Shown here one piece after another: positions 1,627 to 17,343 of a stretch of DNA of 32,000 nt. The translations under genes were made by a program, and so were the position numbers. The stretch covers positions 120,001 through 152,000 of the forward strand of contig NC_017262.1 of NCBI RefSeq assembly GCF_000175255.2, given 5' to 3'. Positions within the stretch are counted from its first letter, which is position 1. Each line of letters starts with the position of its first letter. The notes under the pieces are model-generated. The model saw only the letters and a list, made by a program, of their open reading frames with translations. It was not told the DNA's origin and did no database searches. The DNA is from Zymomonas mobilis subsp. mobilis ATCC 10988. GTDB taxonomy: Bacteria; Pseudomonadota; Alphaproteobacteria; Sphingomonadales; Sphingomonadaceae.

Positions 1627-2364
1627 ATGTTTGATCTTAATGGCCTGACTGCTCTTGTGACGGGTGCCTCTGGCGGCATTGGCTCTGCCATCGCCAAAGC
1701 CTTGGCCGATCAAGGCGCACAGGTTGCCTTATCGGGTACCCGTGAATCTGCGTTAAAAGAAGTCGCGGCAATTTTACCGAATGATCCGATTATTCTTCCC
1801 GCTAATCTCGGCCAAAAAGAAGATGTCGAACAGCTTGTCCCGCGCGCTTTAGAAAAGCTCGGCAAAATTGACATTCTGGTTAATAACGCCGGTATCACGC
1901 GCGACGGTTTAATGATGCGCATGAAAGATGAAGATTGGGCGGATGTTATCGCGCTTAATCTGGAATCCGTTTTCCGTCTTAGCCGTGCCGTCATCAGACC
2001 GATGATGAAGACCCGCTTTGGCCGCATTATCAATATCAGTTCAGTCGTCGGCCAGACCGGTAATGCCGGACAAGCCAATTATGCTGCGGCAAAGGCCGGC
2101 ATGATCGGCATGTCCAAATCACTGGCACGGGAAGTCGCCAGCCGTGGCATTACGGTGAACTGCATTGCTCCGGGTTTTATCGAAACCAAAATGACGGAGA
2201 TTCTTTCCGAACAACAGAAAGAAGCCGCCAAAAGCCAGATTCCGGCGGGTCGCTTTGGGGATATTCAGGATATCGCCGCTGCCGCTGTCTATCTTGCTTC
2301 CAAGGAAGCAGGCTATATGACAGGTCAAACACTCAGCGTTAACGGCGGCATGTCGATGCTTTAA
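1627..2364 (+). CDS. fabG: 3-oxoacyl-ACP reductase (SDR family)
   Basis: 245-aa ORF with TGASGGIG Rossmann motif, NNAGITRD, and catalytic YAAAKAG (YxxxK). It lies immediately downstream of fabD. Confidence 0.93.
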   Translation: MFDLNGLTALVTGASGGIGSAIAKALADQGAQVALSGTRESALKEVAAILPNDPIILPANLGQKEDVEQLVPRALEKLGKIDILVNNAGITRDGLMMRMKDEDWADVIALNLESVFRLSRAVIRPMMKTRFGRIINISSVVGQTGNAGQANYAAAKAGMIGMSKSLAREVASRGITVNCIAPGFIETKMTEILSEQQKEAAKSQIPAGRFGDIQDIAAAAVYLASKEAGYMTGQTLSVNGGMSML

Positions 2365-5011: not shown

Positions 5012-5405
5012 ATCTAAGCAACTGCCTGCGCGGCAGTGAACAGATTTATCCACGCGCCAAGTCTTCCGTGGTCATTTCTAAGCTGCCTGTGCGGCAGTGA
5101 ACAGCCTGTCGCTGGTGGCCGGTAGCCTGTCGCTTTTCTAAGCTGCCTGTGCGGCAGTGAACTCTTGGTGTAGGACCGGTCGGCATAGGATTAAATTTCT
5201 AAGCTGCCTGTGCGGCAGTGAACTTGCAAGTTTAACTTCACATCAATCTGTAAAATTTTCTAAGCTGCCTGTGCGGCAGTGAACTTACCTATCCGCTTAT
5301 TTGAAGCGAACAATATTTTCTAAGCTGCCTGTGCGGCAGTGAACCGACTGCCGGACGTTCTGCGACACCTGAAATATTTCTAAGCTGCCTGTGCGGCAGT
5401 GAACT
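5012..5405 (-). CRISPR. type I-F CRISPR array, 7 repeats / 6 spacers, transcribed on the minus strand
   Basis: 28-nt repeat TTTCTAAGCTGCCTGTGCGGCAGTGAAC at 5076, 5136, 5197, 5258, 5318 and 5378. Its reverse complement, GTTCACTGCCGCACAGGCAGCTTAGAAA, is the I-F (Cas6f hairpin CTGCC...GGCAG) repeat family. A degenerate terminal copy sits at 5012-5042 (3-nt insertion, T>C). Spacers are 33/32/33/33/32/32 nt: 5043-5075, 5104-5135, 5164-5196, 5225-5257, 5286-5317, 5346-5377. Confidence 0.97.
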
Positions 5406-5560: not shown

Positions 5561-5924
5561 CGCAAGAATCTTCACAATATCAAAAAGCCATCAATTCTTT
5601 AGGCCATGCTAATAAGAAAATCCATACTCAAGGCTAATACACACCGCTATTCTCTCGACCAATCTTCAGCGATGGGCAGCATTGAATGGCTCTTATTACC
5701 GTCTATCTTCGCTATGCTAGGGCTGAAAACTAAACGCATCCATTCCAAGACCTTCACTCGGCCATAAGGATGCCAACGTCAGAAAATAGGATATCGCGCA
5801 TTATCCGCGGTTAAAACAGCTTACAAAGGCAGCCATGCCGCAACAGGCCAAAATTAAACTCAATTTCGGCTATGCTTCAAAAATATACGGCGGTGTCTAA
5901 TCCAAAACCACGCGATAAAAGGAT

Positions 5925-5953
5925 AAAAAAGGCCGCTCTTCAAAAGAGCGACC
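5925..5953 (-). terminator. rho-independent terminator of the small lipoprotein gene
   Basis: The minus strand reads GGTCGCTCT-TTTGA-AGAGCGGCC (9-bp stem including one G.U) followed by TTTTTTATCC. It begins 8 nt after the stop codon at 5961. Confidence 0.75.
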
Positions 5954-5960
5954 TTATATT

Positions 5961-6095
5961 TTATTTATTTCTTTCAGCCGAATTAGACATCGACTGTCCG
6001 GCAGAAGAAAGATCTTGCCCGAAACCCTGTACCGTATTGCAAGCCGCCAAGGCCAAAACAGCGGATGCCATTAAACAATGTATCAAAATACGCAT
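5961..6095 (-). CDS. entericidin A/B-family small lipoprotein (44 aa)
   Basis: Below the ORF-track size cutoff. The reverse complement translates to MRILIHCLMASAVLALAACNTVQGFGQDLSSAGQSMSNSAERNK. It has a lipobox LAAC, and CNTxxGxGxDlxxxGxxisxxA resembles E. coli EcnA/EcnB. A GGGGGA SD lies 4-5 nt upstream, and a dedicated terminator follows. Confidence 0.8.
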   Translation of the reverse strand: MRILIHCLMASAVLALAACNTVQGFGQDLSSAGQSMSNSAERNK

Positions 6096-6224
6096 TATTC
6101 CCCCATCCGGTGCCTTATCTGCACCTTGTTCCAGATTTCATAAACGCTCTGGCATATGAAGAAATCGCCTTCACAGCAAAGTTCTTTTACTGAATTTATA
6201 TGAACCACAGAATAATGAAAAAAC

Positions 6225-6332
6225 ACAAAAAAATGACCCGGAATGTCAGTGAGGGGGGAGGAGGAGACATTCCGGATCATGAATTTTAAGAAAGTCAGGC
6301 TAAGGGGGGATAAGCCTACGGACAATCTTGCC
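6225..6332 (-). ncRNA. candidate ~105-nt sRNA with C-rich anti-SD loops (CcsR/cuckoo-like)
   Basis: Minus strand. Hairpin 1 is AGGCT/AGCCT (6317-6313 / 6301-6297) with loop UAUCCCCCCUU. Hairpin 2 is a perfect 10-bp stem CCGGAATGTC/GACATTCCGG (6275-6266 / 6247-6238) with the 18-nt loop UCCUCCUCCCCCCUCACU, followed by GUCAUUUUUUUGUGUUUUUUC. The ends are estimates: the 5' end from the upstream promoter-like motif and the 3' end from the U-tract. Confidence 0.5.
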
Positions 6333-6337
6333 AATAG

Positions 6338-6362
6338 AACTGACCGTGAAAAGGAAAGTTCC
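6338..6362 (-). promoter_or_regulatory. sigma-EcfG-type promoter candidate (GGAAC-N16-AGTT) upstream of the sRNA
   Basis: Minus strand: GGAAC (6362-6358), 16 nt, AGTT (6341-6338). The published alphaproteobacterial GSR promoter consensus is GGAAC-N16-17-CGTT. There is one mismatch, at the C. Confidence 0.4.
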
Positions 6363-6463
6363 AAGCTCCCGCATTATTTTTGTCGATTTTTAAGCACGCC
6401 CATAAAAAGGCATATCAGAACAAAAATATCGCCTATCACAAAGCCGACAACGTTTATCAGGGC

Positions 6464-8116
6464 TTAATCCGGCAATATATCGATATCGTAGTAATAATAG
6501 CCGTCTTCTTCTTTCTCTACCGATTTACCGCCTAACTGCCGCCCAAAGGCGCTGATAATCCGCCGAATAACTTCATTGCCCTTACGGGAAGATAGCTGTT
6601 TCAAGGCCTCGGCTCGGATCTCCAAGCCCGCATGGTCGGGGGTATTTTCAAATTCGGCGCTATGACGATGCAAAATAATGGTGATCGGTAACAACGGATC
6701 AACCGCCAAAGAAAAATCGACAATTTCGACCAGAATAAAGGCAATCGGCATCGCCTTTTCCAAAGGTACAAAAACCTGATCTATCTCGGTTTCAATCTGA
6801 AAATTCTTTTCAAATGTCTGCAAACTGGTTTGTAACCCGTTGACCAATTCCTTAATCAGCAAGGATAAATCCAGCCCTTGGCCTTTATCTAGCTCATTAT
6901 AATATTGGCGCTGAACAATCGCCAAAGCATTTACCCGCCGCTGGATAGTCGCATAGGCGGATTTTTCTTTAGCGGTTTCAGCTCGACGGCTGTGAATACT
7001 CAATAGGCTGGACACAACTTGAAGGTTGTTTTTCACCCGATGATGCACTTCACGGGTCAACATTTTTTGATGCTGTAAGGCATTGCGGAGGGCGCGTTCA
7101 TGGGCAGCCAATCTAACCGCAACATGATAAAAGGCCTTGCTAACCTGCCTAATTTCTCTTGCCGCCCCAATCGAAGCCGGTTTTATCTTTTGTATTTCGC
7201 CCGTCTTGCCATAATCGACAATCGCCCTTTGGGTGCGCCGCAAGGGGCGCAACAGCATATAATGGACAACAACCCAACCAATGCTCGCCGTCATAAACCA
7301 GATCAACACGGGCAACAAAACAAACAGCAAATCGACTTTTCTAAAGGGGGGCAGGTTGTTATCGTAAATCAGGTTAATAGAATTATCAAAAGTCGGAATA
7401 ACAACCGGATGGCTTTGCTTTAATAAAGGCTTCTTCGGCGAAATTAACGGCAATAAATGGCTTTTTTGGGCTAGAAAAAGCGCCGATCCATCCGGCACAA
7501 CCTTCCGCTCGATTATTTTCAATAAAGAATCTCGGCCAATCTGTCCGACAACCAGATATTTTGACAGCGGATAATGCCCACCCAGAAAAGAGAATTGAAG
7601 CTGTCCCTCATTTTCCAGAATATCGACATTATAAAAGTTATTTGCACCCAGCGGCTTAAAAGGCAAAAGCACGGCCGTATTCACTTTAAAATTGTCGCTT
7701 TTGCACAGTAAACGCCCCGATGTATCCATCAAGGCATAATCCACTGGGACGAAACCAAGGCTTTGCATATGCTGAATCAGAAGGGAACATTCGCCCATAT
7801 CGGCAAAATCATAGCTACCTTCTTCGTCAAAGATATTTCTGACATCATAGGCCAAAATATCGATAGAATCGTCAATCGTGCGCGCGCTCTCAGTCGCAAT
7901 AAGCTGCGCTTCTTTTTGGTGATTAAGGCGGTATTGATGGGACGAAGCGATAAACGCCCCAAGTGCAACAAAACTCGGCGGAAGCTGTGCCAAACTTAAA
8001 ACCACCAACATCCGAAACCATGTAGGCATGGAAACGAAAAGCAGAAATAACCGACGGGTCAAAAGCTGCTTTTTGTGGAAGGTTTTTGAAGGCGAATTTT
8101 TAAAAAATGCCTTCAT
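6464..8116 (-). CDS. membrane HisKA_2 histidine kinase-like protein, PhyT/PhyP-like (catalytic domain apparently degenerate)
   Basis: 550 aa with two TM segments flanking a ~220-aa periplasmic region and a HAMP-like linker. The H-box is EVHHRVKNNLQVVSSLL (HisKA_2 type). In the C-terminal region, by-eye alignment finds no N-box Asn (VEIVDFSL where ELvtNAlK is expected) and no DxGxG G1 box. It lies 26 nt downstream of the nepR-like ORF. Confidence 0.85.
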   Translation of the reverse strand: MKAFFKNSPSKTFHKKQLLTRRLFLLFVSMPTWFRMLVVLSLAQLPPSFVALGAFIASSHQYRLNHQKEAQLIATESARTIDDSIDILAYDVRNIFDEEGSYDFADMGECSLLIQHMQSLGFVPVDYALMDTSGRLLCKSDNFKVNTAVLLPFKPLGANNFYNVDILENEGQLQFSFLGGHYPLSKYLVVGQIGRDSLLKIIERKVVPDGSALFLAQKSHLLPLISPKKPLLKQSHPVVIPTFDNSINLIYDNNLPPFRKVDLLFVLLPVLIWFMTASIGWVVVHYMLLRPLRRTQRAIVDYGKTGEIQKIKPASIGAAREIRQVSKAFYHVAVRLAAHERALRNALQHQKMLTREVHHRVKNNLQVVSSLLSIHSRRAETAKEKSAYATIQRRVNALAIVQRQYYNELDKGQGLDLSLLIKELVNGLQTSLQTFEKNFQIETEIDQVFVPLEKAMPIAFILVEIVDFSLAVDPLLPITIILHRHSAEFENTPDHAGLEIRAEALKQLSSRKGNEVIRRIISAFGRQLGGKSVEKEEDGYYYYDIDILPD

Positions 8117-8142: not shown

Positions 8143-8355
8143 TTAGTTGAGTTTTGCCAAAAGGGCTAGAAGGTCATCAGGCACCGCTTCTTCAACCGTC
8201 TGCTGATAGACATTACGCAAGGCAAAACCGATTGCGTTTTTTCGATCTTCCGCCTGTTTTGCCGATTCATCAGCATGTGCGGCATTTCCGGAAGAAGCCG
8301 GTAATTCTTGGGATACTGGCCTTTTATGGTTATGTGCTGTCATGCTGCCATTCAT
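8143..8355 (-). CDS. nepR: NepR-family anti-sigma factor (anti-sigma-EcfG) candidate
   Basis: 70-aa ORF whose C-terminal AIGFALRNVYQQTVEEAVPDDLLALLAKLN fits the NepR signature (IG..LR..Y......P.P..F..LL..L). The N-terminus is disordered and charged. The size is typical and it is co-oriented with a HisKA_2 kinase. Confidence 0.7.
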   Translation of the reverse strand: MNGSMTAHNHKRPVSQELPASSGNAAHADESAKQAEDRKNAIGFALRNVYQQTVEEAVPDDLLALLAKLN

Positions 8356-8593: not shown

Positions 8594-8618
8594 AACAAAA
8601 TATTATAGGCTTTGTTCC
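8594..8618 (-). promoter_or_regulatory. sigma-EcfG-type promoter candidate (GGAAC-N16-TGTT) upstream of nepR, overlapping a TATAAT hexamer
   Basis: Minus strand: GGAAC (8618-8614), 16 nt, TGTT (8597-8594). A perfect TATAAT (rc of 8602-8607) lies inside the spacer. The motif is ~240 nt upstream of the nepR ATG. Confidence 0.3.
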
Positions 8619-10347: not shown

Positions 10348-10857
10348 TTAGTGTTTAAAAACACCTTCAACCACACGGAATCGGTTAATCAGACATTCGC
10401 CACCCCATCTGGCATAAACAGGATCACGCTTGGCGCATATCTGTCCATCACGGCCTGCATGGACATAAAAACCGGAATAAAAATCAAGGGCAGGGCAATG
10501 CTCCAGATGCGCTCTTATCCGGCTGCCCCCTTTTAACATCAAATCAACGCTATCTTTTTCAGAAACAGCGGCGGCACCAATATCTTCTGGTGAGACGCAT
10601 TTCGGGCCCTTTTTCTCATGCCAGACCGCTTCAGGCGGAGGTGGCGGGGCATTATAGGGCGAATCCGGTGGCGGAGGCGGCGGAGGCAAAGGTCTTTGGT
10701 TGCGACCATTGGCATTTCTGACATTCAAATGGATTTCCATCACACCGGAATGTGGAAAATGGCGGGGCGGCATAGCCGACAGAGGCAAGGAAAAAAACAG
10801 GCATCCCCCGATAACGGGGCGAAGCAAAAATGCGCATCCCTTTTCTATCAATGACAT
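10348..10857 (-). CDS. hypothetical secreted protein with polyproline tract
   Basis: The ORF-track start at 10947 is a TTG. ATG 10857 gives MSLIEKGCAFLLRPVIGGCLFFSLPLSA, which looks like a signal peptide. It is followed by PLPPPPPPPDSPYNAPPPPP and a Cys-containing C-terminal domain. I recognise no family. Confidence 0.5.
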   Translation of the reverse strand: MSLIEKGCAFLLRPVIGGCLFFSLPLSAMPPRHFPHSGVMEIHLNVRNANGRNQRPLPPPPPPPDSPYNAPPPPPEAVWHEKKGPKCVSPEDIGAAAVSEKDSVDLMLKGGSRIRAHLEHCPALDFYSGFYVHAGRDGQICAKRDPVYARWGGECLINRFRVVEGVFKH

Positions 10858-11104
10858 AATCTTGGCATAAGACCGCAAATTTCCCCTTGCTTTCGCCAGA
10901 GCATGGCAAAAAAAATATGAATTTCCGATGAATCTGATTGAAGTCAATCCATAAAATCCATCAAGATAGAAATAGCTGTTTCTACTTAATTATTCTTTTC
11001 AGTTCTTGTTATTCGTCCTACTATCTCTTCACTTTGACCAAAACGAAACCTACATTCGTTTGGCAAAGAAATGACAAGCCATATTCATTTAGGAGAGCGT
11101 TGTT

Positions 11105-14311: not shown

Positions 14312-14389
14312 GGCGATCGTAGCTCAATTGGTTAGAGCGCCGGTTTGTGGTACCGGAGGTTGCGGGTTCAATTCCCGTCGATCGCCCCA
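14312..14389 (+). tRNA. tRNA-His (GTG)
   Basis: Hand-folded cloverleaf: encoded G-1 opposite C73, acceptor GCGATCG/CGATCGC, D arm GCTC..GAGC, anticodon stem CCGGT/ACCGG with loop TTGTGGT, T arm GCGGG-TTCAATT-CCCGT, and an encoded CCA. Confidence 0.93.
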
Positions 14390-17266: not shown

Positions 17267-17343
17267 GGCGGAGTAGCTCAGCTGGTTAGAGCAGCGGAAT
17301 CATAATCCGCGTGTCGGGGGTTCAAGTCCCTCCTCCGCTACCA
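17267..17343 (+). tRNA. tRNA with CAT anticodon (elongator Met, or Ile2 if lysidine-modified; not initiator)
   Basis: Cloverleaf: acceptor GGCGGAG/CTCCGCT (G1.U72 wobble), D arm GCTC..GAGC, anticodon stem GCGGA/TCCGC with loop ATCATAA, T arm GGGGG-TTCAAGT-CCCTC, and an encoded CCA. It lacks the initiator features (C1xA72 mismatch and three G-C pairs at the anticodon stem base). Confidence 0.9.

Follow-up and report, generated by a model that had tools for sequence, protein, structure and literature searches.

Between a general stress response (GSR) sensor kinase gene and an entericidin gene in Zymomonas mobilis lies a short intergenic segment: does it encode a regulatory RNA, and if so, to which family does that RNA belong? 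The GSR is the main survival programme of Alphaproteobacteria. A sequence-only reading of a 32,000-nucleotide (nt) stretch of Z. mobilis subsp. mobilis ATCC 10988 (NC_017262.1, 120,001 to 152,000; hereafter the window, to which all positions refer) had proposed a small RNA (sRNA) on the minus strand of this segment and had assigned it to the CcsR/cuckoo-like RNAs. We find that the element at 6228-6331 (minus strand) is a real small RNA of Z. mobilis of ~100 nt, and that it apparently belongs to a Sphingomonadaceae-wide family that is undescribed within the literature searched and in Rfam 15. The region probably encodes an independently transcribed, trans-acting sRNA of the alphaproteobacterial GSR that is controlled by EcfG and uses C-rich loops as seeds.

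We examined the sequence and predicted fold of the element, reading 5700-6800. All the features that had been quoted for it, namely a stem with an 18-nt loop, the tail behind it, and an AGGCT/AGCCT hairpin further upstream, are present on the minus strand. The transcript (6228-6331) is ~98-104 nt long, with a 5' end predicted to lie 7-9 nt past the -10 box of the promoter described below and with measured 3' ends. In both the minimum free energy and the centroid structures it begins with hairpin 1 (6288-6329), whose inner stem pairs AGGCU (6317-6313) with AGCCU (6301-6297) and presents an apical loop, UAUCCCCCCUU (6312-6302), with six consecutive cytosines at 6309-6304. Folding lengthens this 5' hairpin outward via GUC/GAC and AAGA/UCUU, to 6329-6288. 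An AU-rich single-stranded linker, AAAAUUC (6281-6287), which holds a processing site, leads to hairpin 2 (6233-6280), the intrinsic terminator. The core of hairpin 2 is a 10-base-pair (bp) stem of CCGGAATGTC (6275-6266) with GACATTCCGG (6247-6238), which folding extends to a 15-bp helix (6280-6266 with 6247-6233). Its 18-nt loop, UCCUCCUCCCCCCUCACU (6265-6248), contains another run of six cytosines (6258-6253) as well as the exact CCUCCUCCC (6264-6256). The tail 3' of hairpin 2 is GUCAUUUUUUUGUGUUUUUUC (also written GUCAUUUUUUUGUG), and the U7 tract of the terminator (6227-6233) is defined both by sequence and by RNA 3' ends measured at 6233-6228. A simple terminator scan missed hairpin 2 because its loop is longer than the limit of the scanner.

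These sequence and fold features exceed chance. The 105-nt sRNA folds with -35.4 kcal/mol, compared with -15.6 +/- 2.7 kcal/mol in dinucleotide shuffles (z = -7.3), and none of 200 shuffles equals it. CCTCCTCCC occurs once in the window against 0.15 expected occurrences, and runs of six cytosines are rarer in the window than chance predicts (6 against 16.8 expected), with two of the six being the two sRNA loops. A coding reading was rejected for the three overlapping open reading frames (ORFs), which had already been thought to lack coding support: they have no Pfam match, and several 1-nt indels between the window and close relatives break their frames and are therefore incompatible with coding.

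Published end-mapping of Z. mobilis ZM4 provides transcript evidence. A terminator whose sequence appears in Data Set S3 (Vera et al. 2020; PMC7566282) served as anchor for the ZM4 map, so that the genome position equals 1250758 minus the window position and the window minus strand is the genome plus strand. In the portions of Data Set S3 examined, the term-seq 3' ends TERM_1250-1255 fall at ZM4 1244525-1244530 (+), which is window 6233-6228, inside the U7 run (PMC7566282). 3' ends in this run are present in all six ZM4 samples (A-F), with three of TERM_1250-1255 found in six of six; most term-seq sites in the same portions occur in only one or two samples each. Data Set S3 also places a 5'-monophosphate processing site, ProSite_1298, at ZM4 1244474 (+), or window 6284, which cuts the AU-rich linker between CUUAAA and AUUC. 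Together these data show discrete 3' ends and an internal cleavage of the sRNA, and they bear out the proposal of a discrete, terminated small RNA.

We also compared the locus with earlier Z. mobilis sRNA lists. The REFINE RNA-seq candidate possRNA204 probably overlaps the sRNA, a placement that uses a ZM4 assembly offset of 2325-2452 nt estimated from one tRNA. The REFINE paper lists coordinates for 11 Zms RNAs (ten in its Table 2 and Zms1 in its Discussion); no entry lies near 1.244 Mb, which rules out identity with a named Zms sRNA for those 11, Zms2 and Zms9 standing outside the comparison. The window itself holds tRNA genes at 14313-14386 and 17267-17340 (both plus strand; Rfam tRNA, 70.4 and 65.0 bits), one of which gave the assembly offset.

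To follow the element through relatives, we used the adjacent kinase as an anchor. Identity of the kinase homologues drops fast, from 99% to 89%, 68% and then ~36%, the last three being carried by contigs L001, L002 and L003. The order after the kinase is the same in these three: GGAAC-N16-(A/G/C)GTT, a hairpin with a C-run loop, a short linker, a long hairpin with a loop of the CCUCCCC type, a U-rich tail, and the entericidin gene. In L003, where phyR, nepR and ecfG neighbour the kinase orthologue, the promoter matches GGAAC-N16-CGTT perfectly. Scanning species-representative genomes with the kinase as anchor yielded 80 further Sphingomonadaceae loci, giving 83 in all, and a simple pattern scan found the arrangement of promoter and RNA in 59 loci.

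To assess structural conservation, we aligned 29 GC-rich copies with MAFFT, leaving out the Zymomonas sequences; RNAalifold gives two helices for this alignment. Across these 29 relatives, 95.3% of the alignment cells pair, compared with 27-44% after a shift of the 3' partners by 1-3 columns. Two-sided changes are found in 17 of the 23 base pairs, as against 3-6 when slid, and none of 500 shuffles reaches the observed values. Compensatory changes affect both helices (6 of 9 pairs in hairpin 1 and 11 of 14 in hairpin 2), and within the Zymomonas lineage CCGG/CCGG of hairpin 2 has become CUGG/CCAG in L002. The covariation supports conservation of a two-hairpin fold with single-stranded C-run loops, and six members folded singly, the window copy included, adopt the same two-hairpin shape.

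When Zymomonas and the GC-rich relatives were placed in one MAFFT alignment, hairpin 1 was misaligned; the covariance model, R1, was therefore built from the 29-copy alignment without Zymomonas, as an independent test. R1 gives a single significant match in the window, at 6224-6298 (minus strand; 32.8 bits, E = 7e-7), the next best scoring 10 bits, and it also matches L001 with 30.6 bits and, at full length, L002 with 37.5 bits. Over 84 sources, R1 recognizes 61 of the 83 kinase-anchored loci plus the window, with one copy per locus, all on the kinase strand, and GC-rich members score 78-116 bits. The window sRNA has the same position and promoter motif as the rest of the R1 family, directly after the PhyK-like kinase gene and on the same strand. 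Covariance support in the homologous intergenic regions of relatives, on which the sequence-only reading had staked its sRNA, comes from the two-sided changes and from this match.

The loops were then compared among 60 full-length members (62 R1 matches minus two copies cut by contig ends). Loop 1 carries C7 in 53 of the 60, CCUCC is present in the 3' half in 47, and the C-run of loop 2 (columns 75-97 of alignment A3) spans 5-13 cytosines over the 60 loci, loop 1 being almost fixed at C7. The C-run loops are the most conserved unpaired parts of the family, in agreement with the emphasis that had been laid on C/U-rich loops as its conserved, exposed parts. The exact CCUCCUCCC motif occurs in two of the 60 members, Z. 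mobilis and its 89% relative, and is peculiar to them; what is conserved is a plain C-run, C7 in loop 1 and C5-13 in loop 2. Some 20 kinase-anchored loci, mainly from Sphingobium, have no sRNA downstream of the kinase homologue (L006, L014, L018, L024, L029-L031, L039, L040, L042, L043, L046, L048, L051, L060, L062, L067, L071 and L076); these loci may carry a paralogue of the kinase, or may have lost the RNA or have it in another place.

Existing descriptions of sphingomonad sRNAs do not cover this family as far as the literature searched and Rfam 15 extend. For this element, no Rfam 15 family attains its gathering threshold, either in the window or among 15 relatives. No paper pairing GsrN, the GSR sRNA of Caulobacter, with any sphingomonad genus turned up in the literature searched. 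The Sphingopyxis GSR regulon study deals with annotated genes only (PMC7083833), and a December 2025 preprint gives SuhB, which is LysR-regulated and outside the GSR, as the sole characterised sRNA of that Sphingopyxis strain.

The sRNA is preceded by the motif GGAAC-N16-AGTT (6338-6362, minus strand), found by pattern match, with a putative -35 element GGAAC at 6362-6358 and a putative -10 box AGTT at 6341-6338. At the same position, 8-10 nt ahead of hairpin 1, 59 loci of the relatives have GGAAC-N16/17-NGTT, with CGTT in 52 of the 59 and a spacer of 16 nt in 46 and 17 nt in 13. In the Zymomonas lineage the -10 box is AGTT or GGTT. In Sphingopyxis, the -10 box of the GSR promoters was described as flexible and GGAAC as near-invariant (PMC7083833). 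A scan for sigma-70 promoters found none at the sRNA. The comparison supports the view, already held in the sequence-only reading, that the upstream motif is EcfG-like and not RpoH-like.

Taken together, we propose the following course of events. RNA polymerase with an EcfG-type sigma factor would start from GGAAC-N16-AGTT (6362-6338), near 6331, as the conserved motif suggests. Transcription stops at the intrinsic terminator formed by hairpin 2 and U7, as term-seq shows, and the two hairpins hold the cytosine runs of their apical loops single-stranded, in line with the covariation. The AU-rich linker is cut at the site seen in the end-mapping, which would give two halves of ~47 and 52-57 nt with one C-rich loop each. 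The enzyme is probably RNase E, and we infer both this and the consequence of the cut by analogy. As in GsrN and 6C RNA, the loops may then serve as seeds that pair with G-rich or Shine-Dalgarno (SD) sites of mRNA leaders and so change how the targets are translated or how stable they are; Hfq would probably bind the U-tail and the AU linker.

Several observations weigh against an EcfG-controlled, trans-acting sRNA. The -10 box in Zymomonas is AGTT and not the consensus CGTT, the number of EcfG-type motifs in the window is not significant (2 against 2.3 expected), and ecfG and phyR lie outside the window. The 3' ends of the sRNA occur in all six ZM4 samples, all of them non-stress, which indicates substantial basal expression, an extra promoter, or read-through from the kinase gene. 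R1 aligned hairpin 2 alone in the Z. mobilis copy, where hairpin 1 has diverged; it likewise skipped hairpin 1 in L001 and aligned it in L002. The hairpin 1 of relatives is a 9-bp GGAUAGCGA/UCGCUAUCC helix with a UUUUGCCCCCCCGCUC loop, to which AAGAUUGUC/GACUUUCUU of Zymomonas corresponds by eye, as does CUUAUCCCCCC to CUUAUGCCCCCCC, and L002 bridges to the Zymomonas form. The U-tract is poor in many GC-rich relatives, and in those with a weak U-tract read-through into the entericidin gene is plausible.

The targets belong among these points, since the fabG and entericidin leaders are suggestive, as exploratory leads rather than findings. They come from exploratory duplex scans of 25 translation-initiation regions of the window. 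In the leader of fabG (1600-1630; gene at 1627-2364, plus strand), the ribosome-binding region CAGGGGGCAGGAGA pairs with loop 2 at -23.8 kcal/mol (q = 0.002), which puts this duplex in the top 0.2% of the window background. In the entericidin leader (6095-6130, minus strand), the SD region AUGGGGGAAUAAUG is complementary to loop 1 (UUAUCCCCCCUU), with duplex energies of -12.7 and -16.7 kcal/mol (q ~0.025). The G-run of the entericidin leader is kept in L001 and is not general in the family.

The entericidin gene itself offers an alternative function. In 34 of the 60 members it is found on the same strand, 70-183 nt downstream, and in nearly all of these no EcfG motif stands between it and the sRNA, so that read-through co-expression is plausible there. 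The RNA could act chiefly in cis, as a 5' leader or attenuator of the entericidin gene (ecn): transcripts from the EcfG promoter would either end at hairpin 2 or continue into ecn, and the C-rich loops would mask the G-rich ecn ribosome-binding site. In trans, it could be an antitoxin-like repressor of a small lytic lipoprotein. The weak U-tracts of many GC-rich copies and the complementarity of the Zymomonas ecn SD region to loop 1 also favour this explanation, as does the citation of the entericidin locus in the Sphingopyxis GSR-regulon paper (PMC7083833). We nevertheless consider it unlikely. In some 20 members there is no same-strand gene downstream and the convergent end of tatC comes directly next, yet these copies are fully conserved (98-111 bits with R1), and the sRNA is therefore selected for in its own right. 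Moreover, the Zymomonas terminator is strong (15 bp plus U7), with 3' ends in six of six samples compared with two of six at the ecn terminator, and the G-run of the ecn leader is not conserved.

A more elaborate scenario, which we regard as quite unlikely in its entirety, would combine both functions. A general-stress sRNA that arose in Sphingomonadaceae separately from GsrN would have converged on its G-C7-G seed, and processing would split the two seeds of the sphingomonad RNA into two regulators. The RNA would in addition restrain the entericidin lipoprotein toxin in an antitoxin-like manner, the two being co-transcribed by terminator read-through, and the variable C-run of loop 2 (5-13 C) would tune the target range.

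We next consider GsrN, which is a closer functional comparator of the sphingomonad sRNA than CcsR/cuckoo. GsrN depends on sigma-T/EcfG, is usually encoded beside GSR regulators, and has a length of ~106 nt with a cleavage site near nucleotide 53; six tandem cytosines in an exposed loop bind katG and other G-rich targets (PMC5869019). Tien et al. called RNAs 'GsrN-like' on the basis of a sigma-EcfG consensus promoter and proximity to GSR regulators, and reported no gsrN-like gene in Erythrobacter litoralis, the one Sphingomonadales genome examined (PMC5869019). The sphingomonad sRNA has both the promoter motif and the proximity to the GSR on which that designation was based. Using a GsrN loop inferred from published target sites, we scanned metagenomes with the pattern GGAAC-N16-17-CGTT-N15-45-CCCCCCGACTTGA and retrieved at least 120 GsrN loci (L084-L203), which share one conserved RNA. 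The Rfam family RF01529, 'CC3552', matches 11 of 11 tested GsrN loci with 64-114 bits, and we take it to be GsrN from its promoter, its inferred loop and its model length of 106 nt. As a side observation, GsrN (RF01529) therefore extends among environmental Caulobacterales-like genomes far beyond the small set of genera listed in the original paper.

It is distinctly improbable that the sphingomonad sRNA is a true GsrN (RF01529/CC3552) orthologue that has diverged past recognition. The likenesses are considerable: both RNAs have an EcfG/SigT promoter motif (GGAAC-N16-CGTT in GsrN), a place beside GSR regulators, a length of ~100-106 nt, an intrinsic terminator, an endonucleolytic cleavage near the middle, and an exposed G-C7-G in the 5' half (UUUUGCCCCCCCGCUC in sphingomonads and GACGCCCCCCCGACUUGA in GsrN). 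However, RF01529 finds no match to the window region or to L080, a typical family member, at E<=10, and none at the gathering threshold on 15 sphingomonad loci. R1 in turn does not exceed 21 bits on any of 32 GsrN loci, and its best match lies off the GsrN position. The folds differ as well: the C-run of GsrN, with L084 as the folded example, is internal to a long 5' stem and next to a small hairpin, whereas the sphingomonad C-run forms the apical loop of a 9-12 bp hairpin, and the GsrN terminator loop has 4 nt, whereas that of the sphingomonad sRNA is a long, C-rich second seed. GsrN membership was rejected for these reasons. Given the different folds and the failure of RF01529 and R1 to recognize each other's loci in either direction, the two RNAs therefore have regulatory logic and the G-C7-G seed in common, with no detectable common ancestry. 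The best reading is that the sphingomonad family fills in Sphingomonadaceae the role that GsrN has in Caulobacter, with a different fold.

Alternatively, the RNA could be no more than what processing leaves of the 3' untranslated region of the nepR-kinase mRNA, terminator included, and could lack both a promoter and a function. It lies 100 nt past the kinase stop codon on the same strand, no terminator is predicted in between, and a 5'-monophosphate processing site is present. The mapped site is internal to the sRNA, though, and not at its 5' end. An EcfG consensus is conserved ahead of hairpin 1 throughout the 59 loci, and hairpin 1 and both loops are far more conserved than a terminator requires, all of which makes this origin very improbable.

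Among the families to which the RNA had been or might be assigned, CcsR1-4/cuckoo (ar14) was the original proposal. Every hairpin loop of a cuckoo RNA has CCUCCUCCC. These RNAs often form clusters, adjoin DUF1127 genes, are controlled by RpoHI/HII and have been recorded in Rhodobacteraceae and Rhizobiales only (PMC8034643, PMC4615179). The cuckoo matcher accepts a hairpin if its loop measures 9-27 nt and its helix has 6 bp or more. Like CcsR1-4/cuckoo, the Zymomonas RNA is a stress-linked alphaproteobacterial sRNA with two hairpins and C/U-rich anti-SD loops, its linker has at most 10 nt, its loops have 11 and 18 nt, and loop 2 contains the exact CCUCCUCCC. Membership is nonetheless scarcely credible, as loop 1 lacks the motif and so do nearly all relatives, the RNA is single-copy and flanked by the PhyK-like kinase gene and entericidin or tatC with no DUF1127 gene, the conserved upstream motif of the family (GGAAC-N16/17-CGTT) appears to be of the EcfG and not the RpoHI/HII type, the published family is limited to the two groups named above, and no ar14/CcsR-type family matches window 6100-6480 or L080 3850-4100 at E<=10. 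The observation of a single copy without a DUF1127 gene, between GSR kinase and entericidin genes, had been made correctly in the sequence-only reading, whose interpretation holds for the kind of element, an sRNA linked to stress that has anti-SD-like loops and an EcfG motif, and not for the family.

Assignment to any other Rfam family was rejected too, the only hits being noise-level look-alikes: ar7, Scr3202, 6C and CC3664 (the last with 12.2 bits). The best sub-threshold look-alikes of the typical member L080 are 6C RNA (RF01066; 15.6 bits against a gathering threshold of 47) and Scr3202 of Streptomyces (RF02833; 25.9 against 52), with 6C not listed for the window. Each of them has two hairpins with at least 6 C per loop, as in the sphingomonad family, and they differ from it in belonging to another phylum and in having no EcfG or GSR link. 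The C-rich loops of 6C bind several mRNAs (PMC6486639). 6C is the closest architectural analogue, and the likeness is probably convergent; the C-run seeds of three lineages (GsrN, 6C and the sphingomonad family) are likely to reflect convergent evolution. On the window, the best sub-threshold Rfam match is ar7 (RF02342; 17.4 bits, E = 0.25), which scores 14.4 bits on L080 and has a gathering threshold of 60, so that the match is not at membership level. The ar7 loop consensus CCUuAUcCCCCUCUCC resembles GCUUAUCCCCCCUU of the sRNA, and a terminator hairpin then follows; ar7 is a Rhizobiales family for which we found no GSR link.

To our knowledge, GsrN of Caulobacter is the only characterised riboregulator of the GSR, and the sphingomonad sRNA is a well-supported candidate for the missing GSR riboregulator across Sphingomonadaceae, which span plant-leaf Sphingomonas, pollutant degraders and the ethanol producer Z. 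mobilis. With an exact gene model, a covariance model and end-mapping already in print, it is open to direct tests by deletion. Stress tolerance of Z. mobilis is an engineering goal for which sRNAs already serve as levers, and an abundant, conserved sRNA of a stress locus that is not among the Zms coordinates compared is a practical engineering target.

The genes around the sRNA fit a GSR locus. The upstream PhyK-like sensor kinase gene (6464-8116, minus strand) encodes a protein of the HWE/HisKA_2 type (Pfam HisKA_2 and HWE_HK), whose top NCBIfam match is PhyK, under the curated cut-off. It is preceded by the anti-sigma factor gene nepR (8143-8355, minus strand; Pfam NepR, 35.3 bits, and NCBIfam NepR), the first gene of the nepR-kinase operon. 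A second EcfG-type motif by pattern match, GGAAC-N16-TGTT (8594-8618, minus strand), lies ~240 nt upstream of this operon, and its unusual TGTT is kept in L001 (at 3497) and in the distant L003 (at 3519). Its position and conservation suggest an autoregulated GSR operon with a long leader.

Downstream, the entericidin-family lipoprotein gene (5961-6095, minus strand; Pfam Entericidin) has its own terminator at 5955-5929. The REFINE candidate negsRNA241 (old ZM4 1242258-1242458, minus strand), which falls at about window 5850-6175 by the estimated assembly offset, is probably this small entericidin gene. A clustered regularly interspaced short palindromic repeats (CRISPR) array of six repeats (5075-5404, minus strand; Rfam CRISPR-DR4, 50.1 bits each) follows ~500 nt downstream of the entericidin terminator; 'Zms14', according to the REFINE paper, has been re-annotated as CRISPR. 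Elsewhere in the window, between a DEAD-box helicase gene and pgi, a 199-amino-acid ORF (10348-10947, minus strand) with no Pfam match contains a proline-rich stretch, PPPPPPPDSPYNAPPPPPE.

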